A stretch of DNA of 61,518 nt from Fidelibacterota bacterium (GTDB lineage Bacteria > Fidelibacterota > Marinisomatia > Marinisomatales > Marinisomataceae). Made by a program: the position numbers and the translations under genes. Numbering within the stretch: the stretch's first letter is position 1; each line of letters begins with the position of its first letter. The stretch is from NCBI GenBank assembly GCA_029253045.1, contig JAQXAG010000048.1:1-61518 (forward strand), in the 5' to 3' direction. The notes beneath the pieces were generated by a model. That model was not told the origin of the DNA and did not search any database. It saw only the letters and a program-made list of their open reading frames with translations. Positions 6,301 through 56,798 of the stretch are shown here, one piece after another.

Positions 6301-9300
6301 TTTCGTTACTCATATAAAAAAGAATAGCGAGTATTCGGAGCAAGAACAAGGTTGGGTTAAAGGGGATTGGGTGTCAGAAGGTTTTTCTGATTTTACAAAC
6401 GGTAATATAGGTCCATTTGATAATTGGAAATTTGGAGAAAATTACTCTGAAGATTTTGACTTTTTTGAAAGGGTGCAATACAAAGAGGGCGAAGATGGTT
6501 TTGGGGTAAAGCAGGTAATGCCTTATGAATCCCTTTACCATACTTTTTACCCCATAATTAGAAATGGTAACATTGCTATAAAAGGGACGAATACAATATG
6601 GCCATATTACTCAACACTCACAGATAAAAAATGGGAAGGGTTAGCTGAGCCAAAAGTATTAAATACCGACTCGCCTTATTCAGAAGTAATAGGTAATATC
6701 AGATTTAATCATGATTTAAAAATAGGAGTCTTAGAAACAAACCCAGCATCTATAAACCAAGAACCTTTCTATAATTATATTTGTAATCAAGTTAATAATT
6801 CTTCAAAACAGGTAAGTGTAAAACACTTAAAGTTAGAAAATTATAAAAGTTTTAATAGAAGTGATGAAATAAATTCTGGAGTCCCGTCAAAAAGTTATGA
6901 TTGGATGTCAAGAACTAATGTCGTTTTTATAGACGATGGTAGTATTGACTTTGCTAGCGGAACTCTTCCAAAATATTCAATAATAGCAAAATTATTAGCA
7001 AAAAATTATGAATTAAGTTCTTCGGAGGGAATAGATTCTATAGAAAATATTTTTGAGTCAGCGCGTATTAACTTTGCATCATTATCTGCTTTTATGAACC
7101 GTTTTACCTTAAAAGGTTCATGCTCTTACAAGCGGGCTTTTAAAAATGCTACATTTACTACTTCTATTGATTTTAGTAAGTTTAGTTTTTCTGGCAATGA
7201 CTTAACAGAGATGTTTAAATCAGCCACTTTTAAAGCTGGCAATGTGAATTTTTCAAAAATAGAAACACCAAGCTCTATTAAAGGCTGGTTTGAAGATGCT
7301 GTGATTAGTAATGGGACTATAAAAGGTCTAGCAGGCTTAAGGACCTCAGAGTCGACTGATATAAGAAATGCATTTTTAAATTTAAAAATACAATCTGATA
7401 TTACTGATCTGCCTAGATTAAAACTTTCTGAAGGGCAAACTTTTGATTTAATAACTAGTAAATGCGAGTCATTAAGAGACGAATTAGGTAATGTTAATCC
7501 ATCCGCATTTAGAGTGGCGACCGATTCGGCAGGATCTATTACATTGCCAGAAAATTTAAATTTTGTAAATGAAATAGTAGATTATGTAAGAATGACACCA
7601 GGCACTGTCAGTAATACTACTGAAGCATCGATATTAGAGAATGAATATTCAGTTGCAATTAATAAAGGTTATCCAGATGCCTCCCGAATTGGATGGGAAG
7701 ATAATCAAATAAAACCTTCTTTTGTCAAAGCAGGAAAATATGCAATATTAGTTGACTCAGCTAGGGGAACTCCATATTCTGCAAACTCCTCAGTGTATGA
7801 AAGCGATGAAAATAATTGGGCGTCAGTATATAATTCAAATTTAGATTTAGGTTTGTATCAAAGCGAATCAGGATATTGGACTAAAAGCGATAGGCGTTTA
7901 ATTGGGGGAAAACAATTTTTCGGAAATAATGCGGACGATTCTGAAGAGGTAACTGATACAAAATACATTAAGAAGTTCAAAGCTATGGCCCTTTCGAGTA
8001 ATGAATATTACTGGATGGGAGGTAATCCTGTTGTAGGCACTTATAATAAAAATGTTTTAAGTAATTTGTTTTCTTGCAGGACTTTATTTGAGAGTATTGG
8101 CAGGCATTCATATTGGGCAATAATAACCGTGGACAAAGATGAATACCAAAAACAAGACCTTCATTTAAGATTCAAGAATACTACATTCACAAGTAAGGAT
8201 TGGGCTGAAGTGTCGGTAGAACCTTTCAGCTATGCACATAACATGCTTCATGCAGCAGAATGGAATGGGGGGTCGATAAGCTCTCCAAGGAGCTTACTAA
8301 GCAACCAAAAAGGGAAATTTTGGACTGATGCAGAGGAGTTATTAGGACAAGGAGGTTTAGCTACTCTTGATTCAGACTCAGATGGCATATTGGATATAGA
8401 TGAAAAAGGAGATGATATCACAGATCCTGACACTAAAGATTCAAAGATAACAATAACTTATGCAGATTCTGCAGAGTATAATGCAATCGCATCGGTGGAT
8501 CATGACGATCTAGGTTATCTACCACAAGGACATGAAATAGCATCCAATAAAGTAGGCATTTCATTGCAAATTGGAACAGGTGGAATAACCATAGATTGGG
8601 GAGATGACAATGACCCCGTAGCTTATACTACCTCAAACTCAGGAGTTATAGTGAAAGATTACGAATCCTCAGGCGGAGAGAAAACTATTATAATAGACGG
8701 CGATGTTACTACTTTTGGCTCAGATAACAATCATGGTGTAGCAGGTCATTATCTATACGGTTACCACACAACATCATCAGAAACAGATAAAAATGTAAGA
8801 ATCTTTCTTGGAAGCCAATTCAGAATGAAATCTTTTAAGTATGAAGGTGGCGGAGGCCTATTGAAATTTGGAAGACCTTTTGGTATTGGAAATGGGGTAG
8901 TCAATAGTCAGCAGACGCATAAGGGGAAAACCATGTTTGATCCGACCAATAATTGGGCGGCTGAAAATACAGGATTGCCAAAATCTAATTGCCAGGTAAG
9001 TGTAGATTTGTCTGGATTCAAACCATACAGTATTAATAATATATCAGGTGTCTTTAGTCAGCTTTATACTCATGATTTGGATTTATCAAGTTTGGATTTT
9101 TCAAGAATTGTATCCATGGATGAACTTTTCGCTTGTGCTATTATCACTGGAAACCTTAAAATGCCAAAAGTTGACGACTCGAATCCTGCAATGCCTGATT
9201 CTAGATATTTTAATGAACGACAAAATACTTTTGACGCTTCACGAGGAAGCCCAGCAACAAGAAAACAAGCATTAAAAGATGCTCATAGAAGAGGAGGTTA

Positions 9301-11734
9301 TAAAAGATTAAATTGGAGCGGACCTCCTTTAAAAGCTTTGGAAGATGATGAAGGGTCTGGAGAGGGTTTCATATTAGAAAATATATCTAATTGTTATAGG
9401 CAGTATAGTAGGTTATTTGTGGGCGCAGTAATTAATGAAATAACATTTGGAAATTTTAAACCAATCTTTACTAAAGCTGAAGATTATGGATTTATTCTGG
9501 GCAGAGGTAGCAATTATATAAACAAAATAGATGGTGCTATAGCAGAGCAATTTCCTAAATCAAGCATGGGTAGAGGAGGTAAGGGGCTACTACTAGCCCC
9601 TCAAACAAAAGAAATAAATATGACCGCAAGCTTTGTTTCTAAAGGGAAGCAGTATAATGAAGAAAATGCTTGGACTGGGCCTTATGATAGAGAAATAACT
9701 TATGAATTATCTCTGGGAAAAGATGATAACACTGGAAATCAGCACATTGATGTTGTGGCTGAACAGGGGATAAGCGAGCCTATGACAACAGAAGGTGAAA
9801 TATTTGATACAAGTGTAATACTTAGGCTTAAAAAGAATTCTGGTTTTGAACCAGATTCAGTTAATAATTTAAGAGAGGCTAGAGCAAGGTTTAAAGTTGT
9901 GGATGGAGATGATCCTATTAAAGTTGGCGACTATTCCTTTAATTCTACTTTTGGTTACCAACAGATAGAATATGAAATGCCAAAAACCACAACAGTACAA
10001 GGGTTGGTTAATTTTATTAATTCTGAGGGTAAGCTAGCTGCTACCGTTCTAAGTGGAAATACAAGTCAAGTTGTAAGTGCATCTGCTGAATCTTCTCAAA
10101 TGTCTTTTTATGGACATAAACTTCTGGAATTAGATTTCACTGGAGTTACTGGAGGAATTACAGTTAGTGAAATTTATAGCGCAGGTTATCTTACATTAAA
10201 CCTTTCAATAGGCAATGGAAATACAAGACAAGATATGATTGATGCAATTAATCAAGACAGCTCAATTAATTCTAAATACACGGCTTCGGCAAAAAGCTAT
10301 CATAATAATGATGATCTAAATAATGTGATTAATGTTGGATCACCTACTATGAATCGGAATAGCTTTTCCCAAAATAGCAAAACATTACTGACTAAGGGGG
10401 GGATTGATCATGCTTCTTTAGGATGGTCAAATTTTGGAGAGTGGAGGCATCGAAATACATACATTGAAAATCCTTACAATGCAAGTTCCATAAATGTATA
10501 TCCTGATAATACTTATGTGTTTGATTGGAGCGATACCAACATACCAATAAAGTTCTCCTTAACTGATGGGGGGACAGAATGGAATGATCCAGACGGTGTT
10601 ATAACAGTAAACACCACACAAAAGAAAACTACATTGAATATAAATTCTAAATTCCCATCTCACGTTAATGGAACTTCGAATTTCCCTCAAACTGAAGCGG
10701 TTTTATATGGATACGCAGAAGGAAAGTCACTCTTTTCAATGAGAATAAACTATGTAAATAATAGAGGTTTCGTTCTTAAAGGTAAGAATTCTTGGGAAAA
10801 TTTTGGATATTCCTCAAAGCCATCGTTGTACCCTTTTAATGGGTACAGTGACATTAGCGAAGATAACTGGACAGAAGTCTCAACTTTACCGTTGATGGCT
10901 GGCTTAAAGTACATTATTGATTACTCAGAATTACATGAAGCAAGTATATACGACAAGCTTGATTTACTTGGTGATAATATCTCCGCTGGTACGCATATTC
11001 AAGTTTTTAATTATTTTACTTCTCATACCGACAACAGAGAGTTAATAATAGATTTAACTGATATGACAATAGATAATTATACTTCGCCATTTGATTGGGG
11101 AAACTATTCACAACCAGTTTTTGTGAATGGTATAGAATGGAATCAGGCTGGATTGACTATAGGATCAAAAAAATACAACCAAGAGAAAAACACAGCATCA
11201 TCAAACGTTTGTCATGTTAAATTTAATAGGGGTCCAGTAGCTGATGATAATATCTTGCCTAATAACAAACTTGTATATGCACAAAAAGACACCTGGTTCT
11301 ATGGAATTTTTGAAAATCATCAGCGATACAGCACTATTAAAAATAGAGGGGATATAGAACAATGGATGCAGCCAGGAAGCTATAAAGATCTTAATCTTTT
11401 AACTACTGAATTTGAGTATAAAAAATATGAAACTACAGTTTCCAGCCTTTTCGCTGGAAAAGATGAGGTTTACAAATATAATGATGATGGAACTATTACG
11501 ACTCAATCTGCGTCGAAAGTTTCAGATACTTGGGGAAGACAATTCGGTGATGACTCTTATGAATGGAAAAGGAACACTGATTTGATTACGGATATTAATC
11601 CTGCAGAAGCCAAGTATAGAAACAGTCAATGCGGATGCATAGATAGTATGTTAAACTTAAAAACTTTCAAATACACTCAATTAACTAATTTTGATGATTG
11701 GGCTGAAAAGTATCCAGAAAAAGCTCCATCATAA
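3329..11734 (+). CDS. giant (2,801 aa) multidomain protein: trypsin-like protease + PKD-like WGD modules + DUF285/BspA-like repeats
   Basis: Uninterrupted ORF starting 13 nt after the previous stop. Domains seen: a protease triad (nt ~3716-4620); two WGD modules (INWGDNTT, W at nt 5810; IDWGDDND, W at nt 8597), each followed by HxY/xxYxxxGxxxIxIxGDV; DUF285-like repeats (e.g. nt 7080-7310 and 9000-9140); and DSDSDGILDIDEKGDDITDPD (8368-8432), a thrombospondin-type-3-like Ca-binding aspartate motif. Confidence 0.7.
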   Translation: MNNTEHLLEVAKKKLKDFKISSLSFVKVADSEFLISASVDQLIEDLPNSIEIDGKDYNIDQNISKIQLLDDTELEFDGVTKDEGQRLQKWRAKVQGENNRGIIFENDCNAGDDGTEYPDTTVNKTRTRPLKCGLSISADKASQGTLGCFAIDNQDGKLVGLTNAHVLAERFLLTSEGDESGYKASVENTKVYQGDMSNLSGLTDDDAIGIVKRYFPVGLPYTTRSGGHSITKDQYQIDAALIAIKKGMINENSWKLAGIDNTSFNEGGAPTFASYNEHLNWVYDSFWGGYNSDVGGELDEFKTPQESDMLTSGAGTGPKDGTVSGDDNYRWRIVGPYKFQEQKFKNSKNPDATIIKFAANNVAIARQQNKDRYKSDQLNTIARGDWYCADNLIPGDSGSVLYAKIRGKWKMVGLIYATKFEHPTPETITYKEGLIIPFYLVAELLDISPWDGVISDDIFSQEKSGEIRTDLIYAKGKSNIYRHEVDHRLGKRAYFQAGSVERERNRQYTAVQESFGSGDGEIRPIQRNISEFITYDGIDIDLPTEGSFDKSNKEYQSNPVWFKVKNLNVPNSTIPANILDPGNGVITLDVAVIKEDSFEGLGENYFKKENRGKIIYASAPILEFYGSTINASGTNIDSLASKVSDLLGGADSNYQPGKQFTNLSKVRFDDGRKGSRISVPENGLNLNKVTGYIEHFPWELGADGKSKGGARATPEKLEDWIEEGSIKCLVLTYIDKDSEYIIDKVDLGAIETAELGTFPEQKNVAPTGDKIMRFDIDTSKYLSDLTVFTNGTNQNYDSYHWKNGNDRAAKTVMIPILEVGEGGATINWGDNTTTQVPANWKMKNQNQLATCWKNLKAGATTNTTHHQVHQDLGYDKIIHYYQTTGVKQITIEGDVLRFGLVGSFQDEAVSAGGTNYPASEKGWNANHARNIIGGLESSDFYEYSLMFSCRVTFINKFPNWQNCDFIYPFVLSNITGWNVNSEFAGFRSVGAFVTHIKKNSEYSEQEQGWVKGDWVSEGFSDFTNGNIGPFDNWKFGENYSEDFDFFERVQYKEGEDGFGVKQVMPYESLYHTFYPIIRNGNIAIKGTNTIWPYYSTLTDKKWEGLAEPKVLNTDSPYSEVIGNIRFNHDLKIGVLETNPASINQEPFYNYICNQVNNSSKQVSVKHLKLENYKSFNRSDEINSGVPSKSYDWMSRTNVVFIDDGSIDFASGTLPKYSIIAKLLAKNYELSSSEGIDSIENIFESARINFASLSAFMNRFTLKGSCSYKRAFKNATFTTSIDFSKFSFSGNDLTEMFKSATFKAGNVNFSKIETPSSIKGWFEDAVISNGTIKGLAGLRTSESTDIRNAFLNLKIQSDITDLPRLKLSEGQTFDLITSKCESLRDELGNVNPSAFRVATDSAGSITLPENLNFVNEIVDYVRMTPGTVSNTTEASILENEYSVAINKGYPDASRIGWEDNQIKPSFVKAGKYAILVDSARGTPYSANSSVYESDENNWASVYNSNLDLGLYQSESGYWTKSDRRLIGGKQFFGNNADDSEEVTDTKYIKKFKAMALSSNEYYWMGGNPVVGTYNKNVLSNLFSCRTLFESIGRHSYWAIITVDKDEYQKQDLHLRFKNTTFTSKDWAEVSVEPFSYAHNMLHAAEWNGGSISSPRSLLSNQKGKFWTDAEELLGQGGLATLDSDSDGILDIDEKGDDITDPDTKDSKITITYADSAEYNAIASVDHDDLGYLPQGHEIASNKVGISLQIGTGGITIDWGDDNDPVAYTTSNSGVIVKDYESSGGEKTIIIDGDVTTFGSDNNHGVAGHYLYGYHTTSSETDKNVRIFLGSQFRMKSFKYEGGGGLLKFGRPFGIGNGVVNSQQTHKGKTMFDPTNNWAAENTGLPKSNCQVSVDLSGFKPYSINNISGVFSQLYTHDLDLSSLDFSRIVSMDELFACAIITGNLKMPKVDDSNPAMPDSRYFNERQNTFDASRGSPATRKQALKDAHRRGGYKRLNWSGPPLKALEDDEGSGEGFILENISNCYRQYSRLFVGAVINEITFGNFKPIFTKAEDYGFILGRGSNYINKIDGAIAEQFPKSSMGRGGKGLLLAPQTKEINMTASFVSKGKQYNEENAWTGPYDREITYELSLGKDDNTGNQHIDVVAEQGISEPMTTEGEIFDTSVILRLKKNSGFEPDSVNNLREARARFKVVDGDDPIKVGDYSFNSTFGYQQIEYEMPKTTTVQGLVNFINSEGKLAATVLSGNTSQVVSASAESSQMSFYGHKLLELDFTGVTGGITVSEIYSAGYLTLNLSIGNGNTRQDMIDAINQDSSINSKYTASAKSYHNNDDLNNVINVGSPTMNRNSFSQNSKTLLTKGGIDHASLGWSNFGEWRHRNTYIENPYNASSINVYPDNTYVFDWSDTNIPIKFSLTDGGTEWNDPDGVITVNTTQKKTTLNINSKFPSHVNGTSNFPQTEAVLYGYAEGKSLFSMRINYVNNRGFVLKGKNSWENFGYSSKPSLYPFNGYSDISEDNWTEVSTLPLMAGLKYIIDYSELHEASIYDKLDLLGDNISAGTHIQVFNYFTSHTDNRELIIDLTDMTIDNYTSPFDWGNYSQPVFVNGIEWNQAGLTIGSKKYNQEKNTASSNVCHVKFNRGPVADDNILPNNKLVYAQKDTWFYGIFENHQRYSTIKNRGDIEQWMQPGSYKDLNLLTTEFEYKKYETTVSSLFAGKDEVYKYNDDGTITTQSASKVSDTWGRQFGDDSYEWKRNTDLITDINPAEAKYRNSQCGCIDSMLNLKTFKYTQLTNFDDWAEKYPEKAPS
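3716..4620 (+). other. trypsin-like (chymotrypsin-fold) serine peptidase domain inside the 2,801-aa ORF
   Basis: GTLGCFAIDNQDGKLVGLTNAHVLA (His165, nt 3821), QIDAALIAI (Asp238, nt 4040) and IPGDSGSVLYA...WKMVGLIYA (Ser397, nt 4517). The H-D-S order and the TNxHV / GDSGS contexts are typical of S1-family peptidases. The Asp-Ser spacing is longer than usual, implying an insertion. Confidence 0.65.
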
Positions 11735-11781: not shown

Positions 11782-12636
11782 ATGAATAATTTTGAAAAAA
11801 AAGTATTAAACTATCCATTTAAGTTAAAAAATAAAAAAGAAATACTAATTGATTTTTTCTTTCCTGAAAAAGATAATAATCCTAATAAACCTTTAGTTCT
11901 TTACTGTCACGGAGGGGGCTGGAGCCAAGGGGATAAAGAAAAAGCCCAAAAAGGTATTTTTAAAAAAGTTCACGAAGGATTACTTGAGAATGGATTTTGT
12001 ATTGCTTCGGTAGGGTATGATAAGGGAGAAGGAATACCCATTAGGGAATGTGTGACTGATTGTAAAGATGCATTAAGATTTATATTTTCAAAATCAAAAG
12101 AGCTAGGGGTTGACACTAAAAATATTTTTGTATTTGGAGATTCATCAGGAGGTCAAATAGCTCAAGTAATTTCTTTTACAGGAATTGAAGATTTTATCGG
12201 AGATAGTAAACTTAAAAATAATGCTTGTAGTGTGTCCGCAGTAGTGTCTTGGTATGCTCCAGTAGATTTTACGGATAAAAAATTAATGTTTAAAAATGAG
12301 CTCGCACGAAATAAAGATAGGTTTAGGGATAGAATAATGGCAGGAGCAAACCTTAAAGAAGAGCAGCAAAGAAGAGAAGAGATAAGCTCAATAACTTATT
12401 TGAGTGAATCAACTCCGCCTCTGCTTGTGATACACGGGGAGGAAGACGAAACTATTCCAGTAAAACACGCTAGGTTGATTAGAAAAAAAGCTGAAGAAAA
12501 GAATGCTAAAGTAAAAGTTTTAGTAATAAAAAATGCAGGTCATAACTGGAGAGCCACAGACGAAAAAATTTCAATTAAAAAAAATAGAATAATAAAGCAA
12601 ACTATAGATTTTTTTGTAAAAAATATCAAAAGTTAA
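11782..12636 (+). CDS. alpha/beta-hydrolase fold esterase (HGGG / GxSxG type, acetyl-esterase/lipase-like)
   Basis: 284 aa. LVLYCHGGGWSQGD (oxyanion HGGG, nt 11908-11922), FVFGDSSGGQIA (GxSxG nucleophile elbow, nt 12136-12153), LLVIHGEEDETIPV (acid) and KNAGHNW (His). No signal peptide is visible. Confidence 0.8.
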   Translation: MNNFEKKVLNYPFKLKNKKEILIDFFFPEKDNNPNKPLVLYCHGGGWSQGDKEKAQKGIFKKVHEGLLENGFCIASVGYDKGEGIPIRECVTDCKDALRFIFSKSKELGVDTKNIFVFGDSSGGQIAQVISFTGIEDFIGDSKLKNNACSVSAVVSWYAPVDFTDKKLMFKNELARNKDRFRDRIMAGANLKEEQQRREEISSITYLSESTPPLLVIHGEEDETIPVKHARLIRKKAEEKNAKVKVLVIKNAGHNWRATDEKISIKKNRIIKQTIDFFVKNIKS

Positions 12637-12676
12637 AAGTGACTTTCAAAGTTAACTTTAGACTTTCTCTCTTTGA

Positions 12677-12693
12677 GGTGTATAATATATTTA
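12677..12693 (+). promoter_or_regulatory. GGTGTATAATATATTTA candidate promoter abutting the portal start codon
   Basis: A perfect TATAAT (12681-12686) lies 7 nt before ATG 12694, with no room for a Shine-Dalgarno. A near-identical 27-nt copy, including the start codon and next two codons, lies on the minus strand at 56732-56758. Confidence 0.5.
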
Positions 12694-14724
12694 ATGAGCA
12701 AGAGAACATATACAAAAAAATCTCCATACTGGAACAAGTTTGCTTCTGGATCTTTAAATAAAGAGAATGAAGGCGAAGTAGGTATAAATGTGGAACCAGC
12801 TATGGCTGGAGACAATTACTATGTATCTAATGCATCTATGTATAATGGGGGATCGACAGGTACGACCTCAAGAAGAAAAAATTCAATATCCTCTTCAGCT
12901 AAGAATAATAGATTTTCTAACATACGGCAAGGAACATTGCCCTATACCCCAAGTTCTGATGGGGTCAATGTAAGAGACGCGATAGAGTTATGTCAAAAGG
13001 CTTATGCGAATGTTCCTATTTTTAGAAATGCGATTGACATAATGGCGGAGTTAGCAAACTCAACTATATCTGTTGAGGGTGGCAATGAGACCTCTAAAAA
13101 TTTTATAGAAAAATGGTTTTCAAAAATTAACCTATGGTCTTTAAAAGATCAGTTTTTTAGAGAGTATTATAGAAGTGGCAATGTATTTTTATATAGATTA
13201 GATGGCAAATTCTCAGCAGAAGATTTCGTAAAATTAAATAAAATATATGGATCTGAGTATCTAAAAGAAGGCTATATTCCAATAAAATATGTGTTACTAA
13301 ATCCTTATGATGTTATAGCTAATAGGTCTACTTCTTTCAAAGGTAGTGCTTATAAAAAAATACTTTCAGAATATGAGTTGGAAAAACTCCAAAACCCAAA
13401 AACAGAAGAAGATAAAGAGATTTATAATGCTCTTCCAGAAGAAACCAAAAAGAAAATAAAATCTGGAGGTTGGTCTGGAGATGGAGTATCAATGGATTTA
13501 GACGCTTCAAAATTAATACATGCTTTTTATAAAAAACAAGATTACGAACCTTTTGCAATACCGTTTGGATATCCAGTTTTAGATGATATTAACTGGAAAA
13601 TGGAATTAAAAAAGGTTGACCAAGCCATAAGTAGAACTATAGAAAATGTAATTTTACTTATAACAATGGGTACAGATCCAGACAAGGGAGGAATTAATCC
13701 AAATAATTTAAATGCCATGCAGAGCCTTTTTCAAAACGAAAGTGTTGGAAGAGTTTTAGTTTCTGATTATACAACTAAAGCTGAATTTATACTACCAGAC
13801 ATCAGTAAAGTGATTGGGCCTGAAAAATATAAAATAGTAAATGAAGATATTTCTCAAGGTTTACAGAATGTTATTGTCGGAGATGAAAAATATAAAAACA
13901 CCCAAGTTAAAGCTGAAATATTCCTAGAAAGGTTAAAGGAAGCTAGGCAATCATTCTTGCATAACTTTCTTCAACCTCAAATAAAAATGGTTTGTAAAGC
14001 TATGGGATTTAAAATATACCCAACAGCAAAGTTTGAAGAAATAGATATTAAAGACGAAGTTCAATTACAAAGAGTTGTAACTAGATTAATTGAAATGGGA
14101 ATATTGACTCCTGAGCAAGGTGTTAAAGCTATTAAAACTGGAATATATCCTGAAATTGAAGATATTGAAAAAGCACAGAAGAGATATATCGAAAAAAGAA
14201 AAGAGGGAATGTACAACCCACTAGTAGGTGGCTTGCCTATGGTTGATGTCGATGGAGATGGAACAGTAGACACCGTTCCATCAGGGAATCCTGAAGAAGG
14301 CGGAAGTTCCAATAAAACTCCCACTCCAAAAGGTTCTGGTAGGCCAGTAGGTAGACCTAGGGGAACAAAAGGCATACCTAGAACAGTGAATGCTACAGAA
14401 GATTTATATTCTAGAAAAGACATCCAAGCTATTGTTTATAAAACCCAAGAGTTGGAAAATCATATTAAAGAAGCTTTTGCAAACAAAACAAACAAAGAAG
14501 AGCTATCAGAAGAGCAAAATGAAATGTGCTCCCAACTAACAAAAAGCATAGTTATGGCAAAAGATAAAAACCAATGGAGAAGATGTGCTAATTCATGTAT
14601 AAAAGATTTTGAAAAAATAGAAAAACTTAAAGTTTTAAAAAATATTTTAGAAATATCTGAAGAGAAAAATTTAGAACTTTATGCTTCTTCATTACTTTAT
14701 CACAGTAAAAAACAAAAAACTTAA
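12694..14724 (+). CDS. portal protein (candidate)
   Basis: The track ORF starts at TTG 12673. I prefer ATG 12694 (MSKRTYTKK...) because of the promoter-like element. The protein is 676 aa and lies directly upstream of the protease/scaffold, D-position and capsid genes (lambda B-C/Nu3-D-E order). VPIFRNAIDIMAELANSTISVEG...FFREYYRSGNVFLY looks like portal-family proteins. There is a Gly/Pro/basic C-terminal extension. Confidence 0.7.
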   Translation: MSKRTYTKKSPYWNKFASGSLNKENEGEVGINVEPAMAGDNYYVSNASMYNGGSTGTTSRRKNSISSSAKNNRFSNIRQGTLPYTPSSDGVNVRDAIELCQKAYANVPIFRNAIDIMAELANSTISVEGGNETSKNFIEKWFSKINLWSLKDQFFREYYRSGNVFLYRLDGKFSAEDFVKLNKIYGSEYLKEGYIPIKYVLLNPYDVIANRSTSFKGSAYKKILSEYELEKLQNPKTEEDKEIYNALPEETKKKIKSGGWSGDGVSMDLDASKLIHAFYKKQDYEPFAIPFGYPVLDDINWKMELKKVDQAISRTIENVILLITMGTDPDKGGINPNNLNAMQSLFQNESVGRVLVSDYTTKAEFILPDISKVIGPEKYKIVNEDISQGLQNVIVGDEKYKNTQVKAEIFLERLKEARQSFLHNFLQPQIKMVCKAMGFKIYPTAKFEEIDIKDEVQLQRVVTRLIEMGILTPEQGVKAIKTGIYPEIEDIEKAQKRYIEKRKEGMYNPLVGGLPMVDVDGDGTVDTVPSGNPEEGGSSNKTPTPKGSGRPVGRPRGTKGIPRTVNATEDLYSRKDIQAIVYKTQELENHIKEAFANKTNKEELSEEQNEMCSQLTKSIVMAKDKNQWRRCANSCIKDFEKIEKLKVLKNILEISEEKNLELYASSLLYHSKKQKT

Positions 14725-14729
14725 ATTTT

Positions 14730-14739
14730 TGTGTAATCT
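14730..14739 (+). promoter_or_regulatory. TGTGTAATCT upstream element
   Basis: Same GTGTAAT core, 31 nt upstream of ATG 14770, in the 45-nt gap after the portal gene. Confidence 0.3.
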
Positions 14740-14769
14740 TCTTTTGAACAATAGCTAACACATATATAA

Positions 14770-16398
14770 ATGTACAAATATAAAACTTTTTTCTCTAGCG
14801 AAATACAAGCTTCAAGTATAGACAATAATAATACAGAATCTATTTCTAAGGCTTCTTTGCAATCATTAAAATCTTTAATGCCTGAAGGAATAGATCTTGA
14901 AGGTAATATAGATTTAATTGCTGTAGCTTTTAATGCTGCCGTAGTTAATGTATTTAATAAGAATCATGACGGAATAAATACTGAAACCGCAAAAGCTGTA
15001 TATAAATACTTTGTAAATAAACCCACAAATATAGAACATAAAAAACAAAAAGTTGTGGGTCATATCATTTCTTCTGGATTTTCAAAGTACGGAACTAATG
15101 AAATTTTAGAAGTAGAAGATATAGAACAATCATATGAGCCTTTTAATATAGCCTTATCGGCTCTAGTTTATAAAACTGTAAATCCTGAGTTTGCAGATTT
15201 AATAGAAAAGTCATCTGACGAGAACGATCCAATGCACAATGTTATTTCTGCCAGCTGGGAAATAGGGTTTAATGATTATGCAATAGCCGTTGGTAGTAAA
15301 AATTTAAAAGAAGCCGAAATTGTAACAGAAGAAAAACAAAAAGAAGAATTGAAAAAATATTTAAAAGCTTTTGATGGAGACGGCCTCATGGACGACGGAA
15401 CTGAAATATATAGATTAGTAGCGGGTGATGTTTATCCATTGGGAATTGGGTTTACCACCAATCCAGCCGCAAATGTAAAGGGAACTATCCAATTAGATAA
15501 AAAAAAAGCAGTGGAAGAAGATCAAATAAAAAACGAAGAAAAAGCTGAAAAGATAGAGGTTAACTTTGACAATTTTTTAAAAAAAATAATAAATATTAAA
15601 AAAAATTCTTCACATACGGAAAAAACGCATGTAATTTCAGACAAACCGAATTTAATCAAAACCGTTCAAAAAATGGAAACACAAGAACTCATCGATCAAC
15701 TCAAGGAAACAATCTTAGCATCAAGCTCTGATAAGTTCTCCGAAGAAGCTGTCGCAAACATCGTAAAGGTAGTATCTGATGCTATCAGAGAAAAGAGCGA
15801 TGTTTACGTTCAAGAAAAAGCTGATTTGGAAACTCAAAGACAAGAGGTAGAAGCTGCCAAAGTCGAATCCGAAAAAAAGCTAATAGAACTTGAGGAAAAA
15901 TTAACCGCTTCTGAAGAAACCTTATCTAAGATTCAGGCAGAGCAAGACGAAGCTAGAAAGCTTCAATTGTTTAATGACAGAATGTCTTCCTTAGATGAAG
16001 AATACGAACTGTCAGACGATGACAGAAAAATTTTGGCATCCGAAGTTAGTGGAGTTGAAGAAGGCGAAGAAGCTTTCGCAACTTACCAAGAAAAAATAGC
16101 GATAGTTTTCAAGCATAAGAATAAATCTTTTATTGAAGAGCAAGAAAAAACTTTTAACGAAAAAGTACTTGCTGAAGTAGAGAAAAGAATGTCGAACGAT
16201 ATTGAAGCTCATGCTTCTGAAGAGGTTGCTGAAGTAGCTGAAGAAATTTCTCAAGAAGTGGTAGAAGAAGTTCTAGAACAGATTGAGTCCAGCGAAGACA
16301 TTCCTTCTAACAATGGTGAATCCACCGAAAAAGACTTATCTCTTGCTGATAAATTTAAATCAGCTTTTAACAAAGAATCCATAACAATTAAATACTAA
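14770..16398 (+). CDS. prohead protease - scaffolding fusion protein (candidate)
   Basis: 542 aa. In the N-terminal ~240 aa, NIEHKKQKVVGHI (His90), ISASWEIGF (Ser162) and LGIGFTTNPAANVKG resemble the conserved blocks of HK97-type (S78) prohead proteases. The C-terminal ~250 aa are acidic and heptad-like (EKADLETQRQEVEAAKVESEKKLIELEEKLTASEETLSKIQAEQDEARKLQ), typical of scaffolds. Confidence 0.5.
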   Translation: MYKYKTFFSSEIQASSIDNNNTESISKASLQSLKSLMPEGIDLEGNIDLIAVAFNAAVVNVFNKNHDGINTETAKAVYKYFVNKPTNIEHKKQKVVGHIISSGFSKYGTNEILEVEDIEQSYEPFNIALSALVYKTVNPEFADLIEKSSDENDPMHNVISASWEIGFNDYAIAVGSKNLKEAEIVTEEKQKEELKKYLKAFDGDGLMDDGTEIYRLVAGDVYPLGIGFTTNPAANVKGTIQLDKKKAVEEDQIKNEEKAEKIEVNFDNFLKKIINIKKNSSHTEKTHVISDKPNLIKTVQKMETQELIDQLKETILASSSDKFSEEAVANIVKVVSDAIREKSDVYVQEKADLETQRQEVEAAKVESEKKLIELEEKLTASEETLSKIQAEQDEARKLQLFNDRMSSLDEEYELSDDDRKILASEVSGVEEGEEAFATYQEKIAIVFKHKNKSFIEEQEKTFNEKVLAEVEKRMSNDIEAHASEEVAEVAEEISQEVVEEVLEQIESSEDIPSNNGESTEKDLSLADKFKSAFNKESITIKY

Positions 16399-16404
16399 AA
16401 AACC

Positions 16405-17091
16405 ATGGCACACAGATTATTACCTTTTAGACAGTACGACGAGAATGACGTAGTCAATCTCTTCGCCCTGAATGCAAAAACCTTGGGTGTAGACCTCAAG
16501 TTGATGAAGCCTTCGGCGGATGACATTAACGCGGACGGAGTTTTAGTTTCCGTTGAAAACGGGAATATGGTTGACAATGATGTCAACTCATTTGGAGAAG
16601 ACGACAGATTCATGAATTCCTATGATTCGCCAGTCGGAAGAAACCCTTATCCAACTAACCCACTTAAGATTGCTCCAGCAGCTTCTGGAACGAGACCTCT
16701 TGGAGTTACTCTTAATCAAACTCTTGCAGTTGATGAGAATGGAGAAAGCTTGCTTTTCAATCCAGTAAAGAAGGATGAGCTTCAAGCAGTTCTTTCTGGT
16801 CAAACCGTTCCAGTTTTAGGAAAAGGAATCATCACGGTTCACCAAAGCGCTGTAGAGTACCAAGCTCAAGGAAATTACGGATTGCCAATAGTGGGAGATA
16901 GACTTATCTCTGCTGGAGGAGGAAAATTCGCATCAGTCGCACCAAATGCAGCTGCTGGAGTGAAAGCCAACCAAGCCATCGGACAAGTTTTAGCTATTGG
17001 AAGCAGAGGAGGTCCTAGCGCCAATAGACCAGTAGGTCTTCGCCCAGATTTCCAAAGCGGAAATTACTACGTAATTAAGCTTGATTGCTAA
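16405..17091 (+). CDS. head decoration / capsid accessory protein (positional candidate)
   Basis: 228 aa, in the lambda gpD position between the scaffold and capsid genes. It shares the elevated G+C and C-ending codons of the capsid gene. PIVGDRLISAGGGKFASVAPN...NQAIGQVLAIGS is reminiscent of DUF2190/decoration proteins. Confidence 0.35.
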   Translation: MAHRLLPFRQYDENDVVNLFALNAKTLGVDLKLMKPSADDINADGVLVSVENGNMVDNDVNSFGEDDRFMNSYDSPVGRNPYPTNPLKIAPAASGTRPLGVTLNQTLAVDENGESLLFNPVKKDELQAVLSGQTVPVLGKGIITVHQSAVEYQAQGNYGLPIVGDRLISAGGGKFASVAPNAAAGVKANQAIGQVLAIGSRGGPSANRPVGLRPDFQSGNYYVIKLDC

Positions 17092-17126
17092 AACTATAAC
17101 ATTTAACAAAAAAAGGTTTAACTAAA

Positions 17127-18188
17127 ATGAATATTACACTCAAAAGAACCGACGAGCAAATCGAACTGGTAAAGGCTATGGCCTCTAAGGACAGAAGTGT
17201 CGCTTACGAAGCTCAACAAGCACTTGCCGCATTCATCGGACCAGTATTGGCCGAGGTTGTAGATAACGCTCCGACATTAAGCAACTTGTTCACCGCTTTT
17301 CAATTCGCCGCTGACGACAATCCAAGTATTCCTTTGGATCTTTATCACGATGTAACTGATGACGAGTACATCAAGGTTTACACTTCTAACACTGCTGGTG
17401 GGCTTCCTTCCAGTCATGTTACTCCAACTCATAGCGAGCTTAAGCTCTCTACTTACAGGTTGGAAAGTGCAATCGACTTTGATAAGCGCTATGCTTCTCG
17501 TTCCAGACTCGACGTGGTTAGTAAGAGTATGTCAAGATTGGCTCAAGAAATCATGCTTCAACAAGAAGCAGCTTCTGCCGCTTTGATCATGGGTACTATC
17601 GCTGACAATGAAGATAAGTGCTATACTCAAGTTAAAACTGCTGGTAAACTCGATATGGATGACTTTAACGCTCTTCTCACGAAGGCTAAAAGAAACAATC
17701 CCGCATGGAATGCTGGTACTCCTGAGCGCAGTCGTGGAATTACCGATCTTATCGTTTCTCCAGAAGTCGTTCAACTTCTTAGATCTTTGGCTTACAATCC
17801 AATCTCCACAGTAGCTGGAGAAGGTATTTCAGCTCCAGACAGCATGAGAAGCACCTTGTTCTCACAAGCTGGAATGACTGAATTCTTCGGAATTTCCATC
17901 ATGGAGATCTACGAGCTTGGACCAAATGCTAAGTATCAAGAAGTTGCAAAGAAACTTATCACAGGGCACACTGGCGCAGGTAAGGATAAAGACTTTGCTC
18001 TTGCCCTTGACAGAAGCCGTGAGTCTATGCTCCGCGCAGTTGCTGTTGATGCTGAGTCAGGAACTTCCTTGACCACTAGTGCTGATGATCAGTATGTAAC
18101 TAGATCCAAGAAGATCGGTTATTACTGCGAGCTTGAGGAAGGCCGCACGATCATTAACGATAGTGCAATCATCGGATTAGGTATCTAA
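17127..18188 (+). CDS. major capsid protein (HK97-fold, lambda gpE-sized)
   Basis: 353 aa, following the portal, protease/scaffold and D-position genes. It has the strongest G+C and codon bias in the window (~48% G+C in hand-counted blocks). A strong intrinsic terminator follows immediately. Confidence 0.75.
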   Translation: MNITLKRTDEQIELVKAMASKDRSVAYEAQQALAAFIGPVLAEVVDNAPTLSNLFTAFQFAADDNPSIPLDLYHDVTDDEYIKVYTSNTAGGLPSSHVTPTHSELKLSTYRLESAIDFDKRYASRSRLDVVSKSMSRLAQEIMLQQEAASAALIMGTIADNEDKCYTQVKTAGKLDMDDFNALLTKAKRNNPAWNAGTPERSRGITDLIVSPEVVQLLRSLAYNPISTVAGEGISAPDSMRSTLFSQAGMTEFFGISIMEIYELGPNAKYQEVAKKLITGHTGAGKDKDFALALDRSRESMLRAVAVDAESGTSLTTSADDQYVTRSKKIGYYCELEEGRTIINDSAIIGLGI

Positions 18189-18210
18189 GATATCTAAAAC
18201 CCTTTTGAAA

Positions 18211-18243
18211 ACGCGGTAGCTTTTGAGTTACCGCGTTTTTTTT
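18211..18243 (+). terminator. rho-independent terminator after capsid gene
   Basis: 8-bp stem ACGCGGTA (18211-18218) / TACCGCGT (18229-18236), a 10-nt loop, and a T8 run (18236-18243). Confidence 0.8.
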
Positions 18244-18315
18244 GTGGAATTTTCTAAATGACTTTTTATAATAATGTGTGTAGACTATATATGTATATGC
18301 TAACCCTCAAACACC

Positions 18316-18717
18316 ATGGCTAATAAAAAAACAACAAAAAATAGAGCAAAGAAAACTGGAATAAAGAAAGAAATTGAATTCATTGATGGTAAAGTTGATG
18401 ACGACAAGCAAGCTCTTTCAAAAGATATCGAAGAAATTTTGATGCCGAGTAAAAATCCATTTGGAACAAATTCTTCTGAGGATTTAGAAAATAAGTTAGA
18501 GGGAATGAATTTAAGGCAAATGCAAGAACTAGCAGTTAAGGCTAGTGTTTTTCCTTCTGGCAACAAAACGACTTTAAGAAAAAAAATTAAAAAAGAATTC
18601 TCAGTTAAATTTGGAACTAAAGATGGAAGCAGAAAATACAATGCGCCAACTGAATCTCCAATCGTAGCAGATAAAGAAGTAGCCAAAGATGTTATGGCTA
18701 TTTTGAACAAGAGATAA
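18316..18717 (+). CDS. small basic protein with Rho-N/HeH (SAP-like) motif
   Basis: 133 aa with a Lys-rich N-terminus. LEGMNLRQMQELAVKASVFPSGNKTTLRKKIKKEF matches the helix-extension-helix pattern (L..m.l.eL.elA...g...s....K..LI..I). The fully overlapping minus-strand ORF 18300-18710 is hydrophobic low-complexity sequence, an antisense shadow. Confidence 0.6.
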   Translation: MANKKTTKNRAKKTGIKKEIEFIDGKVDDDKQALSKDIEEILMPSKNPFGTNSSEDLENKLEGMNLRQMQELAVKASVFPSGNKTTLRKKIKKEFSVKFGTKDGSRKYNAPTESPIVADKEVAKDVMAILNKR

Positions 18718-18741
18718 TCTTTTTAATAAAAGGTTTTTGGT

Positions 18742-19254
18742 ATGGGGGCATACAATTTTTCAGATAATGTCAATGAGATTGGAAATTTAGCTTCTGGAAT
18801 ATACAAGTATGATTTTGACGAAGATTCTTCTTTAGTTAATCCAAGCTTTGTTTCAGGATGGCTGCAGAACAATGTTGGAGAGTTAAATATTTCTATTCAT
18901 AATTGCTATAGTGGAGAAAATCCAGGAATGGGAGATGAGGAGCAAAACATATACAGGCAAATGTTCTTAAGAGATTTTTACAAAAAAACAGGTAGGAAGG
19001 CTTTAATGGGAGTCTCATACACTTCCGCTAACGAAAACGGGCTTGTAACATCCGATTGGACTGAGTTAAGAGAGGGAGATAGTGTTATAAGAAGAAGAGC
19101 TTTATTAGCTAGCCCTAGCGAGAAAATAACGGCATCCAGGCAATTCTCAGAGCTATCAAGAGAAGCTAACGAGGAATTAAAGCATCTTTTATATAAATAT
19201 AATATATCAAAAGGTGAACCTAGACAGGTTGCAGGAAAAGATTCTCCAGCTTAA
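18742..19254 (+). CDS. hypothetical virion protein (head completion/connector candidate by position)
   Basis: 170-aa ORF after the capsid block. No motif recognised. Its stop shares TTAA with the convergent minus-strand gene. Confidence 0.5.
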   Translation: MGAYNFSDNVNEIGNLASGIYKYDFDEDSSLVNPSFVSGWLQNNVGELNISIHNCYSGENPGMGDEEQNIYRQMFLRDFYKKTGRKALMGVSYTSANENGLVTSDWTELREGDSVIRRRALLASPSEKITASRQFSELSREANEELKHLLYKYNISKGEPRQVAGKDSPA

Positions 19255-20237
19255 CCTTGCCCTCCTAACTCCATTAAATCTGACATATTCAAACTGCCGC
19301 CTTTTTTCTTAGCCGCTTGAGTTATGGAATTAGTTGATTTATCCACTCCCATATATTCATAATCTTCTTTTGTCGCCCCAAATACAGTAGAAGCTCCATC
19401 TTTATCCAAGTGTTCTTTCATTTTTTCTCTGCTTTTTGAGTTACTTGCAAAATCTAAAAGAGCCGCAGGATCTTTTCTTATTTTACTTGGAATATCTTGA
19501 TTATTGTCAAAAATATTTCTAAAAATTCTACTGTAAGTTAATATAGAAAGTTGATTGTTATTTAATTCAATAGCTGGTTTACCGAAAAGCTCTGTCGGTT
19601 TTTCGCTTATATACATGAAAGGAAAAAAGAACTCTTCTAAAACAATCTTTTGTATATTCTCCTCGCAAAAAGTTGACACCATTAAATTATTCACTTTGGT
19701 ATATTCCGCAATGTCACTATAAGAAAGTTCGTTAAAATCTTGGTCTGATAAAAATCTCTTTTTGAATTTTTTATCTAAATAAAAAGAGTTCGCAACAAAA
19801 TAATCATTAATTTGCTTGGAGGCATAAGCTTCTGCCGTATTACCAAGCAATGAAATTCTTTCATTTTTCTTATTATTAAATTTTGCTTGTTCTTCGTCTA
19901 TAATTTTTTGATGACGATCTTTTTCTGATTTTAAATTTAAATTATTTTTGGTTCTCTGGAGGTTTTCTAGAAATATTTGTTGAGTCTCTAGGAAATTTTC
20001 ATCTTTTTCGGTCCATAAATCATCTTCAAATATTATTTTTAAAGCTTCCTCTTCTGTGGGCAAACCTCTTTTTTTAGCCTTACTTAAGAATGTTTCTTCC
20101 TTTTCATTTACAGCTATATAATCATTAGCATGTAAATGTTTTGCATATAAAACATTATCTTTTACTGAGGTTTTTGTATAACCCAAACAAACATCTCTAA
20201 ATACTTTTCTATAAAAATATTCATCTTTTTCATACAT
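19251..20237 (-). CDS. hypothetical protein (inverted cassette 1, gene 3)
   Basis: 328 aa. ATG 20237 overlaps the upstream minus-strand stop by 8 nt (ATGTATGA). Its stop shares the palindrome TTAA (19251-19254) with the plus-strand gene. Lys/Glu/Asn-rich, with no recognisable motif. Confidence 0.6.
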   Translation of the reverse strand: MYEKDEYFYRKVFRDVCLGYTKTSVKDNVLYAKHLHANDYIAVNEKEETFLSKAKKRGLPTEEEALKIIFEDDLWTEKDENFLETQQIFLENLQRTKNNLNLKSEKDRHQKIIDEEQAKFNNKKNERISLLGNTAEAYASKQINDYFVANSFYLDKKFKKRFLSDQDFNELSYSDIAEYTKVNNLMVSTFCEENIQKIVLEEFFFPFMYISEKPTELFGKPAIELNNNQLSILTYSRIFRNIFDNNQDIPSKIRKDPAALLDFASNSKSREKMKEHLDKDGASTVFGATKEDYEYMGVDKSTNSITQAAKKKGGSLNMSDLMELGGQG

Positions 20238-20991
20238 CGCCAGAATCTATATCTTTATTTAAATCATCAAAATCTTCCTTAGATGCATTAGAGCTAAAAT
20301 ACCAAAAACTTAAAATTGATAATATTTTATCTTTTACAAGGTCAAAAATTTCGTGACCGTTTTCATCGACATCATAATATTGATCTATTTTATCTTCAGA
20401 TTCTTGCCCATTAAAGAAAGGTTTTACATCAGAATCTTCATTTTCTTGATAATGAGAAAGGTGAACTAAATACCAAAGTATAACTTTATTTTGAGCCTTA
20501 CTATCTGCCGTATGATTGAAAAGAGAAGAGTAGGAGGTTTCCATATCTACGATATCCCTTCTTTTTTCAGCCATCTCGCCAAGAAGAGAACTTAACCTAT
20601 CTTCGTCTTTTTTTTCTTTTTTTGGTTTTGATGACAATCTGCTGTATTTGTTCTGCATTTCTCCAAGCTCCGAATACCTTCTTGTTAAAAGCTTCGCATC
20701 TTCTTCTGTCAGTAACCCACCTGTATCACTATATTTTTTAGCTAACATGGCTTTTGTTAAAATACCTCTCTTTATGCATTTACTCATTTCTATGCTATAC
20801 TCTATGTCCGCTTCTTCCAAGTCTCTTCTGTTAGGTTCCTTAAGTAATATCTTTACTGGAACTGGCTTCTTGACAGTCTCCTCTATAGAGACCTCCTCCA
20901 TTTTTCCAGTCTCTTTATTTTTTCTTTTTTTCTTGACGGTCTCTTTAACCTCTCTGTCTATATCGACACTAAAACTGTATATCTCTTTCAT
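20230..20991 (-). CDS. hypothetical protein (inverted cassette 1, gene 2)
   Basis: 253 aa, with a highly charged N-terminal half (KKKRKNKETGK...) and an acidic C-terminus. Translationally coupled to the downstream gene. Confidence 0.6.
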   Translation of the reverse strand: MKEIYSFSVDIDREVKETVKKKRKNKETGKMEEVSIEETVKKPVPVKILLKEPNRRDLEEADIEYSIEMSKCIKRGILTKAMLAKKYSDTGGLLTEEDAKLLTRRYSELGEMQNKYSRLSSKPKKEKKDEDRLSSLLGEMAEKRRDIVDMETSYSSLFNHTADSKAQNKVILWYLVHLSHYQENEDSDVKPFFNGQESEDKIDQYYDVDENGHEIFDLVKDKILSILSFWYFSSNASKEDFDDLNKDIDSGDV

Positions 20992-21005
20992 GTATTAATT
21001 AATTT

Positions 21006-21311
21006 TTACTTATAATAATTTTTAAACTTAAATTCTACAATAAATTTTTCCAAATCTTCGCTTTGACTTCTCAATGAATCATTTCCCAAATCAAGAACTC
21101 TTTTTCTAAGATATTGCATTTTTTCAAAATCAAAATAATTTGCTTGATTTATGAGCGAATTGTAAGTCTCTGGTAAAGCTTTTTTTAATTTTGCAAAATG
21201 TATATTATGCTCTTCGTTCAAATCTTCAAGCATGAATAAAAAACCCTTGAATAAGCTTTTTATATGCTTTTCATACCTGTCTTGTAATATTTCTTTATCT
21301 TCCTCGCCCAT
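21006..21311 (-). CDS. hypothetical protein (inverted cassette 1, gene 1)
   Basis: 101 aa and helical-looking. It is preceded by a 66-nt AT-rich divergent intergenic region (21312-21377). Confidence 0.55.
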   Translation of the reverse strand: MGEEDKEILQDRYEKHIKSLFKGFLFMLEDLNEEHNIHFAKLKKALPETYNSLINQANYFDFEKMQYLRKRVLDLGNDSLRSQSEDLEKFIVEFKFKNYYK

Positions 21312-21358
21312 AATAAGCTAGATATAATAATTTTCAAAAACAATTTTTCAACAAAAAG

Positions 21359-21368
21359 AGTGTAATTT
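21359..21368 (+). promoter_or_regulatory. AGTGTAATTT upstream element
   Basis: GTGTAAT core ending 9 nt before ATG 21378. It restarts plus-strand transcription after the inverted cassette. Confidence 0.4.
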
Positions 21369-21377
21369 ATATATAAG

Positions 21378-21839
21378 ATGTCCAGCCTGATACCAGATTC
21401 AGAAAAAATTCTTTTACAGAATGCTTTCGACAGTGTTCATTCGACATTCGCAAGACCTATTTATTACTTTAAAGAAGCTCAAACTGTAGTCCTGCAAACA
21501 AACCCTTCTTTTAATTCAATATATGGTCAACAAAATAATGCTGTAAATAAAACCATCAAGAAGGTTATTCAATCTGGTGTCTTTAATGCTAGAATAGCAT
21601 ACGATACAGACAAAGCGAATTCTTACATTAATGATCCTGAAATAGATTCTCAATTAAAACTTAAGCTCCCTGATGGATATGTAAGAATAAAAGTTGATTC
21701 TAGTGGATATAAAACAATAAAGGAAACTAAAAGAGTTATTTTTGACGATAGAACTTTTTCGATAGAAAGTGATGTAAGGCCACATGGTTTGTTTAAACCC
21801 TCTTATTATACATTCTTTTTACTTCCTACAGAAAAGTAA
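21378..21839 (+). CDS. head-tail adaptor / head closure protein (candidate)
   Basis: 153 aa, the first gene of the neck/tail block. RVIFDDRTFSIESDVRPHGLFKPSYYTFFL resembles the C-terminal pattern of small head-tail joining proteins. The call is weak. Confidence 0.4.
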   Translation: MSSLIPDSEKILLQNAFDSVHSTFARPIYYFKEAQTVVLQTNPSFNSIYGQQNNAVNKTIKKVIQSGVFNARIAYDTDKANSYINDPEIDSQLKLKLPDGYVRIKVDSSGYKTIKETKRVIFDDRTFSIESDVRPHGLFKPSYYTFFLLPTEK

Positions 21840-56758: not shown

Positions 56759-56782
56759 AAAACGGAGAAAAAACTATTTTAA

Positions 56783-56792: not shown

Positions 56793-56798
56793 ACATAC

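Follow-up and report, generated by a model that had tools for sequence, protein, structure and literature searches.

Two Genes Preceded by One 27-nt Block

The DNA considered here, a stretch of 61,518 nucleotides (nt) deposited as contig JAQXAG010000048.1 of a Fidelibacterota bacterium (assembly GCA_029253045.1) and called the window in the following, carries the structural module of a siphovirus-like phage with a GC content of approximately 34%. Its source is an uncultured marine tailed phage of this siphovirus-like type. Two genes of the module, gene 1 (12694-14724 on the plus strand, 676 aa) and gene 2 (54639-56741 on the minus strand, 700 aa, followed by a 356-aa gene at 53556-54626), begin within two copies of a 27-nt block that are inverted relative to each other. 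Copy 1, GGTGTATAATATATTTAATGAGCAAGA, is located at 12677-12703 on the plus strand, and copy 2, GGTGTATAATATATTTGATGAGTAAGA, is the reverse complement of 56732-56758 and is thus read from the minus strand. Re-reading both positions bears out the inverted near-duplicate described by an earlier interpretation made without database searches (the sequence-only reading): 25 of the 27 bases are identical in register with the two start codons, and the longest exact run common to both copies is 16 bp. The perfect TATAAT that had been noticed 7 nt before each ATG is present in both copies as well. In copy 1, a GTG (12678-12680) is followed by TATAAT (12681-12686), the A/T spacer ATATTTA and the ATG at 12694, continuing with AGC AAG A, and in copy 2 the same order is GTG (56757-56755), TATAAT (56754-56749), the spacer ATATTTG and the ATG at 56741, continuing with AGT AAG A. 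Both open reading frames (ORFs) open with M-S-K, as had been stated, encoded by ATG AGC AAG in gene 1 and by ATG AGT AAG in gene 2. A hexamer stands at the -35 position 16 nt 5' of each TATAAT, namely the -35-like TAGACT (12659-12664, plus strand) at copy 1, where a consensus scan gives 10 of 12 matches for TAGACT-16-TATAAT, and TAGTTT (56771-56776, minus strand) at copy 2, which is part of an AAAATAG(N)TTTTT stretch.

A chance similarity in an AT-rich genome is favored by the AT-rich core of the block and by other inverted repeats of 21-26 nt with 88-95% identity that are present in the window by chance; as a bare repeat, the pair tops the list of the window only narrowly. An all-versus-all comparison of 27-mers with at most two mismatches yields only this pair and an internal duplication of a fibre gene (59.3 kb). 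However, no 27-mer pair of this quality arose in 30 first-order Markov simulations of the window, the pair pattern had no match in 100 dinucleotide shuffles, each copy is positioned in register with a start codon, and both sites are kept in related phages. It is this register at both genes, together with the conservation in other phages, that makes the pair convincing, and a chance origin is effectively refuted.

Gene 1 probably encodes the portal protein, as far as profile matches and a predicted fold can tell, and the support for this earlier assignment is weak but consistent. The members of the gene-1 family, >4,600 in number, come from marine metagenomes (Tara samples among them) and are encoded on contigs of up to ~218 kb. 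The profile phrog_16240 (“portal”) finds 10 out of 20 members of the family with a best E of 0.003, and a fold search with the AlphaFold model, which is poor, returned phage portals for nearly all matches, the best one being the P23-45 portal with a weak E of 0.018. No Walker A motif is found among the invariant columns of the family. Gene 2 has only five homologs. Its designation as leucine-rich-repeat (LRR)-like could not be maintained, as the LRR matches in Pfam reach only E = 0.2-0.5 and there is no fold match; gene 2 has no assignable fold, and a fold search with its poor model yielded nothing usable. Neither gene has a Pfam or PHROG match at standard thresholds, a profile search of PDB sequences gave nothing, and the AlphaFold models of the two proteins are poor, with predicted local distance difference test (pLDDT) values of 50.5 and 58.3. 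That the two proteins are unrelated, as had been assumed, agrees with a BLASTP comparison of gene 1 and gene 2 (E = 2).

A Class of GTG-TAnnAT Sites in the Window

For the window statistics, the 45 nt upstream of each of 30 gene starts were considered. Without any prior choice of motif, GTGTA came out as the 5-mer with the strongest enrichment in these regions (10 observed versus 0.7 expected, P = 4e-9), and at the positions -14 to -18 it is found in six genes versus 0.085 expected (P = 5e-10). Five of these six close-set starts belong to the plus strand (766, 12694, 21378, 56799, and 57960) and one to the minus strand (56741), with a TAnnnN hexamer ending 5-9 nt before each ATG. Besides the two copies described above, the close-set members are all located on the plus strand and read GTG-TAATAA-AAAGT-ATG (752-768) 5' of the 849-aa DUF285 gene (766-3315), GTG-TAATTT followed by 9 nt and ATG (21360-21380) at gene 21378-21839 in a divergent intergenic region, GTG-TAAATT-ACATAC-ATG (56784-56801) at the 383-aa gene 56799-57950, and GTG-TAATTA-AATACG-ATG (57945-57962) 5' of the BppL_N fibre gene (57960-61247). 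The element of the 383-aa gene is the divergent partner of copy 2 and is kept in the related loci L201, L203, L205, and L206. The 57-bp intergenic region 56742-56798 between these two genes contains two back-to-back GTG-TAnnnT elements, whose hexamers start 33 bp apart and are each 6-7 nt away from their own ATG.

Four further genes, with starts at 14770, 18316, 25300, and 39837, have GTGTA at -29 to -39. At the tape-measure gene, the site TTTGGTG-TAATAT (25271-25279, plus strand) lies 20 nt before the ATG at 25300 and after a strong terminator (25210-25239), it is kept in the related locus L209, and the leader contains an AAGGA that resembles a Shine-Dalgarno (SD) sequence; similar sites with a leader are located at 14731, 18278, and 39808. 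Since the sites with a leader are found at varied distance from the start codon, the motif behaves as a transcription signal and not as a translation signal of fixed distance. Furthermore, class sites mark the beginning of operons, occupy both divergent intergenic regions and follow a terminator, and this placement is promoter-like. Judged by its sequence context, the pair is not the stand-alone 27-nt duplicate as which it had been introduced: the window contains at least 10 sites of a promoter-like class, and no two of them are as alike as these.

A SD core (GGAG, GAGG, or AGGA ending 4-10 nt before the start) is present in just two of the 30 genes. GGAGG-like runs are found instead 13-15 nt upstream at three genes (12694, 35939, and 49373), and the G-rich run before the GTG start of a 1,393-aa gene is kept in related loci. 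The GGTG of the block could itself be taken as a SD-like ribosome-binding signal, in which case the block would be a translation-initiation region on a longer mRNA rather than a promoter. GGTG is complementary to the CACC near the 3' end of the 16S rRNA, copy 1 reads GAGGTG, TTTGGTG is present in 34 of 56 orthologous regions, and a few other genes have GGAGG-like runs at 13-15 nt from the start. However, GGTG ends 11-13 nt before the ATG, while pairing with CACC would require ~3-7 nt, as derived from the 16S 3'-end sequence. Moreover, only the GTG is kept, with CTAGTG in gene-2 orthologs and CGTG or AGTG in some gene-1 orthologs, the conserved part runs on as TAnnAT, which has no anti-SD pairing partner, and the same motif is found 29-39 nt from other starts. 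A ribosome-binding function of GGTG is therefore improbable.

Conservation in Related Phages

Orthologs of gene 1 with 50-91% amino-acid identity were taken from ~90 related loci and provided 56 distinct upstream regions. GTGTA is present at -14 to -20 in 54 of these, 52 of the 54 contain the hexamer TAnnAT, and in 45 of the 54 the gap between hexamer and start codon is 5-7 nt. The two exceptions among the 56 still carry TATAAT, 5 or 8 nt before the ATG. TAGACT or TGGACT at 16 nt upstream is less common (31/54). Invariant positions of the hexamer include T-12, A-11, and T-7, and positions 3-4 vary freely. Invariant T, A, A, and T together with variable positions 3-4 is the pattern expected from selection for a -10 element of the sigma-70 family, and the spacing differences of 1-2 nt among the gene-1 orthologs show that the motif is not coding sequence.

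The gene-2 orthologs, which have only 35-43% protein identity, contain GTGTATAATATATTTG-ATG as an invariant sequence (L201-L204, L206, L227, L229, and L231), and divergence sets in directly after the ATG. Despite this low protein identity, the 57-bp divergent intergenic region is retained in the gene-2 loci. A weight matrix that was trained only on gene-1 upstream regions of other phages gives its highest score anywhere in the window to copy 2 (18.9 bits); copy 1 receives 15.1 bits, compared to 13.5 bits for the best of 20 shuffles. In the related loci the layout with GTGTA at -15 recurs upstream of three genes (the 383-aa gene, the fibre gene, and a small gene of 127 aa), and none of the replication-module genes there has it. 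The sequence-only reading had attributed the similarity to a shared regulatory and initiation signal and not to gene duplication, and this view gains support from a layout that is kept upstream of the orthologs of both genes and recurs at other genes of the window.

A scan of IMG/VR with TTTGGTGTAYWATNNNNNATG returned gene-1 orthologs for about one quarter of the matches listed, the rest being unrelated sigma-70-like sites in other viruses, and no new paralogous sites were among the matches listed. A gene adjacent to the replication module (L201, 1034-1150, with equivalents in L203 and L205) has TATATT-ATATA-ATG, i.e., a -10-like hexamer 5 nt before the ATG without GTG, and from such a sequence leaderless-type starts may not be confined to the GTG promoter class.

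The Lineage-Specific Part of the Identity

In the sister genome IMGVR_UViG_3300028844_007948, whose portal protein is 84% identical, copy 1 reads GTGTATTATACATATG-ATGAGTAAGA and copy 2 reads GTGTATAATATATTTG-ATGGCTAAAA. The two copies are there only ~20/26 identical, and gene 2 opens with MAKK; other gene-2 orthologs open with MST or MSKV. In the closest relative, L209 (91% portal identity), copy 1 reads ctGTGTATTATATATTTA-ATGAGCAAGA. Because of the ~20/26 identity of the sister copies and the MAKK of gene 2 in that genome, the 25/27 identity and the common M-S-K are, by this comparison, lineage-specific, and only the architecture is under long-term selection. From the earlier claim that the whole element is conserved as a shared signal, GTG-TAnnAT-N5-7-ATG thus remains, whereas the M-S-K extension does not belong to it.

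The extra identity goes back either to a small conversion event or to a drift that brought copy 1 closer to the family consensus. A recent copying or gene conversion between the two sites in this lineage would leave the promoter geometry as it is and explain the extra identity without separate selection. For this, 14 of the 16 bases outside the ~11 motif-constrained positions match (rough binomial of ~1e-5 per pair), copy 1 differs from that of L209 (ctGTGTATTAT) at three positions with every change toward copy 2, and the copies of the sister genome are only ~20/26 identical. However, the same three changes also approach the family consensus TTTGGTG-TAtaAT and are explained by ordinary selection or drift, L209 already carries the spacer ATATTTA, and the tract is too short to detect conversion. 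We therefore regard conversion as unlikely.

The inverted pair brackets the region of 12.7-56.7 kb and had also been proposed as a potential substrate for inversion of the 44-kb structural block. Such an inversion would proceed by an invertase or by homologous recombination, and an exchange inside the pair would leave both genes with promoter, ATG, and M-S-K. However, the longest exact run is just 16 bp, and no recombinase or invertase match was obtained in Pfam and PHROG scans of the ORFs tested, some small ORFs being left unscanned. All 56 distinct gene-1 upstream regions retain the ACTTT-repeat flank, and all gene-2 loci, eight of them syntenic, retain the divergent 383-aa neighbor, so that the ~90 gene-1 loci and the eight syntenic gene-2 loci contain only parental and no inverted junctions. 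In addition, the similarity is explained by a motif that is also found at unrelated genes. An inversion of the block is hardly credible on these grounds, and this part of the sequence-only reading is given up.

Probable Promoters with Predicted Near-Leaderless Transcripts

Taking sequence, position, and conservation together, both copies are probably promoters of one class, GTG-TAnnAT close to the ATG, which would serve the virion genes of the phage and for which a near-leaderless mRNA is predicted. In a promoter of this class, GTG would immediately precede the -10 hexamer TAnnAT (here TATAAT), and a weak -35-like TAGACT or TAGTTT would be located 16 nt upstream. With the hexamer at -12 to -7, position +1 would be the base before the ATG, which is A in copy 1 and G in copy 2. 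As the only purines 6-9 nt past the hexamer are this pre-ATG base and the A of the ATG, RNA polymerase is predicted to start at the AUG or 1 nt before it, giving transcripts that begin with (A/G)AUG or AUG. A purine occupies the predicted +1 position in the two copies as well as in all orthologs with 7-nt spacing. An mRNA of this kind would lack a Shine-Dalgarno leader, and ribosomes would bind directly to the 5'-terminal AUG; leaderless translation fits because SD cores at canonical spacing are so rare among the genes of the window. The in silico signature of leaderless genes, a TA-like signal ~10 nt upstream and no SD sequence, is present at both copies, and ATG is the start codon in both copies of the window and in most orthologs. 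Over their first 60 nt, neither of the two predicted transcripts shows more stable folding than shuffled sequences (z = +0.6 and +1.4). By the common element, the head operon (from the portal gene onward) and the minus-strand tail-end operon with the 700-aa and 356-aa genes would be co-regulated, probably as late genes, although we infer this timing, the start sites and the kind of sigma factor or polymerase that would read the promoter. Geometry and comparative conservation both agree with the leaderless mRNA that the sequence-only reading had postulated, and leaderless expression is retained as a prediction. Two short contigs considered as transcripts with informative 5' ends were rejected, since both carried upstream DNA.

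Several points weigh against this interpretation. The transcription start site is a prediction from geometry, and, as a minor objection, four groups of gene-1 orthologs (L015, L016, L017, and L022) start with GTG. In E. coli, AUG is strongly preferred for leaderless initiation and GTG is poor. Since GTG abuts the hexamer, TG is located at -14/-13 and not at -15/-14 as in a canonical extended -10 element, and therefore recognition by the host sigma-70 is not guaranteed. The -35 match is weak, with 4/6 for TAGACT and 3/6 for TAGTTT when compared to TTGACA, and the other members of the class share no common -35 hexamer. Moreover, several members end the hexamer in A (TAATAA, TAATTA), at 56.7 kb each of the two divergent promoters extends into the -35 zone of the other, and at 57945 GTGTAA doubles as Val-stop of the upstream gene, which is a second possible cause of conservation.

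Copy 2 reads TATATTTG right before the ATG and therefore also contains a perfect TAnnTTTG, the -7 box of Bacteroidota promoters, which is invariant in the gene-2 orthologs. The functional element could accordingly be a promoter of the Bacteroidota type in a flavobacterial host, with transcription starting inside the annotated ORF. The near absence of SD sequences would fit such a host, and four of the 14 misbinned contigs from metagenome-assembled genomes (MAGs) that carry the portal gene are labeled Flavobacteriales. However, copy 1 reads TATATTTA, and most of the 56 gene-1 regions are without TAnnTTTG (e.g., TACTATCTAAT). A TTTG is missing at the distance of 19-21 nt upstream, gene upstream regions show no enrichment of TAnnTTTG (4 of 93 sites versus 2.3 expected), and a start past TATATTTG would remove the conserved ATG and the N-terminus. 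As the MAG labels come from eight or more unrelated taxa, they carry little information about the host. A Bacteroidota-type promoter is thus very improbable, and the GTG-TAnnAT promoter class remains the preferred interpretation.

The region upstream of the portal gene contains an additional feature. The two adjacent palindromes AAAGTGACTTT and AAAGTTAACTTT and the half-site TAGACTTT (12636-12666, plus strand) precede copy 1, and the half-site overlaps the -35 position of the putative portal promoter. AAAGTGACTTT and AAAGTTAACTTT are two of just three matches of the window to AAAGT-N0-3-ACTTT. Equivalents of these AAAGTnnACTTT palindrome arrays (ACTTT/AAAGT) are kept 5' of the portal gene in ~80 related loci, and the array is specific to the region upstream of this gene. 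From its symmetry and position, 12636-12666 is probably a binding site of a dimeric regulator, for which it is a candidate, or a packaging-related site. In a wider and rather doubtful scenario, GTG-TAnnAT could be a late promoter that is read by a sigma factor or RNA polymerase encoded by the phage itself and not by the host sigma-70. The lineage, very large and globally distributed in the sea, would then express its virion genes mainly leaderless in a host with scarce SD sequences, and the AAAGTnnACTTT palindromes would be the operator of a lineage-specific regulator.

The Phage and the Neighboring Genes

The tail genes of the window encode a tape-measure protein of 3,545 aa with a PhageMin_Tail domain, a lambda-like tail-tip set with M/L/K/I-like PHROGs, a J-like protein of 2,880 aa with a Phage-tail_3 domain, and the BppL_N fibre protein. 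The length of the tape-measure protein implies an exceptionally long tail. Three ORFs are giant: 3329-11734 (2,801 aa), 25300-35937 (the tape-measure gene), and 40551-49193 (the lambda-J-like tail-tip gene). The 2,801-aa protein has no Pfam match. Among deposited phage genomes, neither a DNA search with 12000-19900 nor a protein search with gene 1 gave a match, and nothing was found in the literature on this phage lineage.

Host identification was attempted by tRNAs and Rfam matches, of which the window has none. Homologs of the portal protein are present in GTDB contigs (L210-L223) from MAGs that are labeled, among others, Halobacteriovorax, Cellvibrionales, Verrucomicrobiales, Flavobacteriales, Patescibacteria, Neomarinimicrobiota, Rhodospirillales, and Pseudomonadales. 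These contigs, some of them >200 kb, and the protein P0121 are almost certainly misbinned phage contigs, and for this reason and due to the diversity of unrelated taxa the labels do not allow a host call. The Verrucomicrobiales label was rejected as a host clue, as it is of the same misbinning kind.

Directly 5' of the portal gene lies a gene for a BD-FAE/alpha-beta-hydrolase esterase (11782-12636, Pfam E = 1e-42), which is kept in L209, and the 849-aa protein with the DUF285 domain (766-3315) is encoded further upstream of it. A three-gene cassette on the minus strand (19251-21311; 328, 253, and 101 aa) is located inside the plus-strand structural module and has no family matches. Its promoter is a canonical-looking TTGAAA-16-TATTAT without GTG and is divergent (21312-21377) from the GTG-TAATTT promoter of 21378; the cassette may belong to another temporal class. 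The fibre gene 57960-61247 contains five repeats of ~132 nt (58244-59809) with 67-73% identity to the reference copy and a tandem pair of 167 nt at 82% (59235-59575), and the repeats suggest a shaft of repeated domains. In gene 49373-53554, which encodes the 1,393-aa protein without assigned function, the region 51269-51469 is alanine-rich and has overlapping GCTGC/GATGCA repeats, whose spacings are multiples of 3 nt (9, 12, 24, ...).

Relation to Known Systems and Significance

As described by Zheng et al. (2011; PMC3160421), a TA-like (-10) signal ~10 nt upstream of the start codon is the in silico signature of leaderless genes, which according to this source make up >20% of the genes in Actinobacteria and Deinococcus-Thermus. 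The GTG-TAnnAT sites resemble these genes in that TAnnAT ends 5-7 nt before the ATG, no SD sequence is present at usable spacing, and the position is kept across orthologs. In contrast, the host would be AT-rich, unlike the GC-rich groups with the highest share of leaderless genes, an extra conserved GTG abuts the hexamer, and the leaderless state is here predicted from geometry.

A short promoter element is also used by the phiEco32 sigma factor gp36, whose single-element promoters read tAATGTAtA with the transcription start 6-8 bp downstream (PMC8948821). Both systems have a short element with TGTA(t)A, no strong -35 element, a start few bp downstream and middle or late genes as targets, and the partner promoter at 56780 reads TAATGTGTA, although the resemblance is loose. 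However, the consensus is GTG-TAnnAT here, and the phiEco32 transcripts are not described as leaderless. A phage sigma gene is not known for the present lineage, since the window contains structural genes only, and together with the fetched flanks it represents a part of genomes of ~160-220 kb.

P23-45 is likewise a siphovirus, and its tape-measure protein is very long as well. In its late-type promoters a -10 element with a conserved G/T-rich extension is dominant and the -35 element is weak, as in those proposed here, and their transcripts are reportedly largely leaderless. Unlike in P23-45, GTG instead of TGn abuts the hexamer, and our phage has ~34% GC and is marine and not thermophilic; a gp39 or gp76 homolog was not seen in the window, although no search was aimed at one. 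With canonical sigma-70 promoters copy 1 shares TAGACT-16-TATAAT (10/12), and the conserved T-A-n-n-A-T corresponds to the positions read by sigma region 2, whereas the -35 element is weak and not common to all members and the conserved GTG at -15 to -13 is non-canonical. The classic leaderless case in a phage is the lambda cI gene transcribed from PRM. The pair would join the known leaderless, -10-dominated phage promoters and is no new mechanism.

The inversion of the structural block would have been the more striking finding but is unsupported; the significance would rise if GTG-TAnnAT is read by a phage-encoded factor in this lineage. The analysis yields a promoter consensus, GTG-TAnnAT followed by 5-7 nt and ATG, and it maps the operons in the structural module of a marine lineage that is abundant but uncultured and whose genes are mostly without annotation. 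If confirmed, the consensus would improve the calling of start codons and operons on thousands of related contigs, and the lineage would provide an AT-rich marine case of leaderless expression, which is known mostly from Actinobacteria, Deinococcus-Thermus, and archaea.

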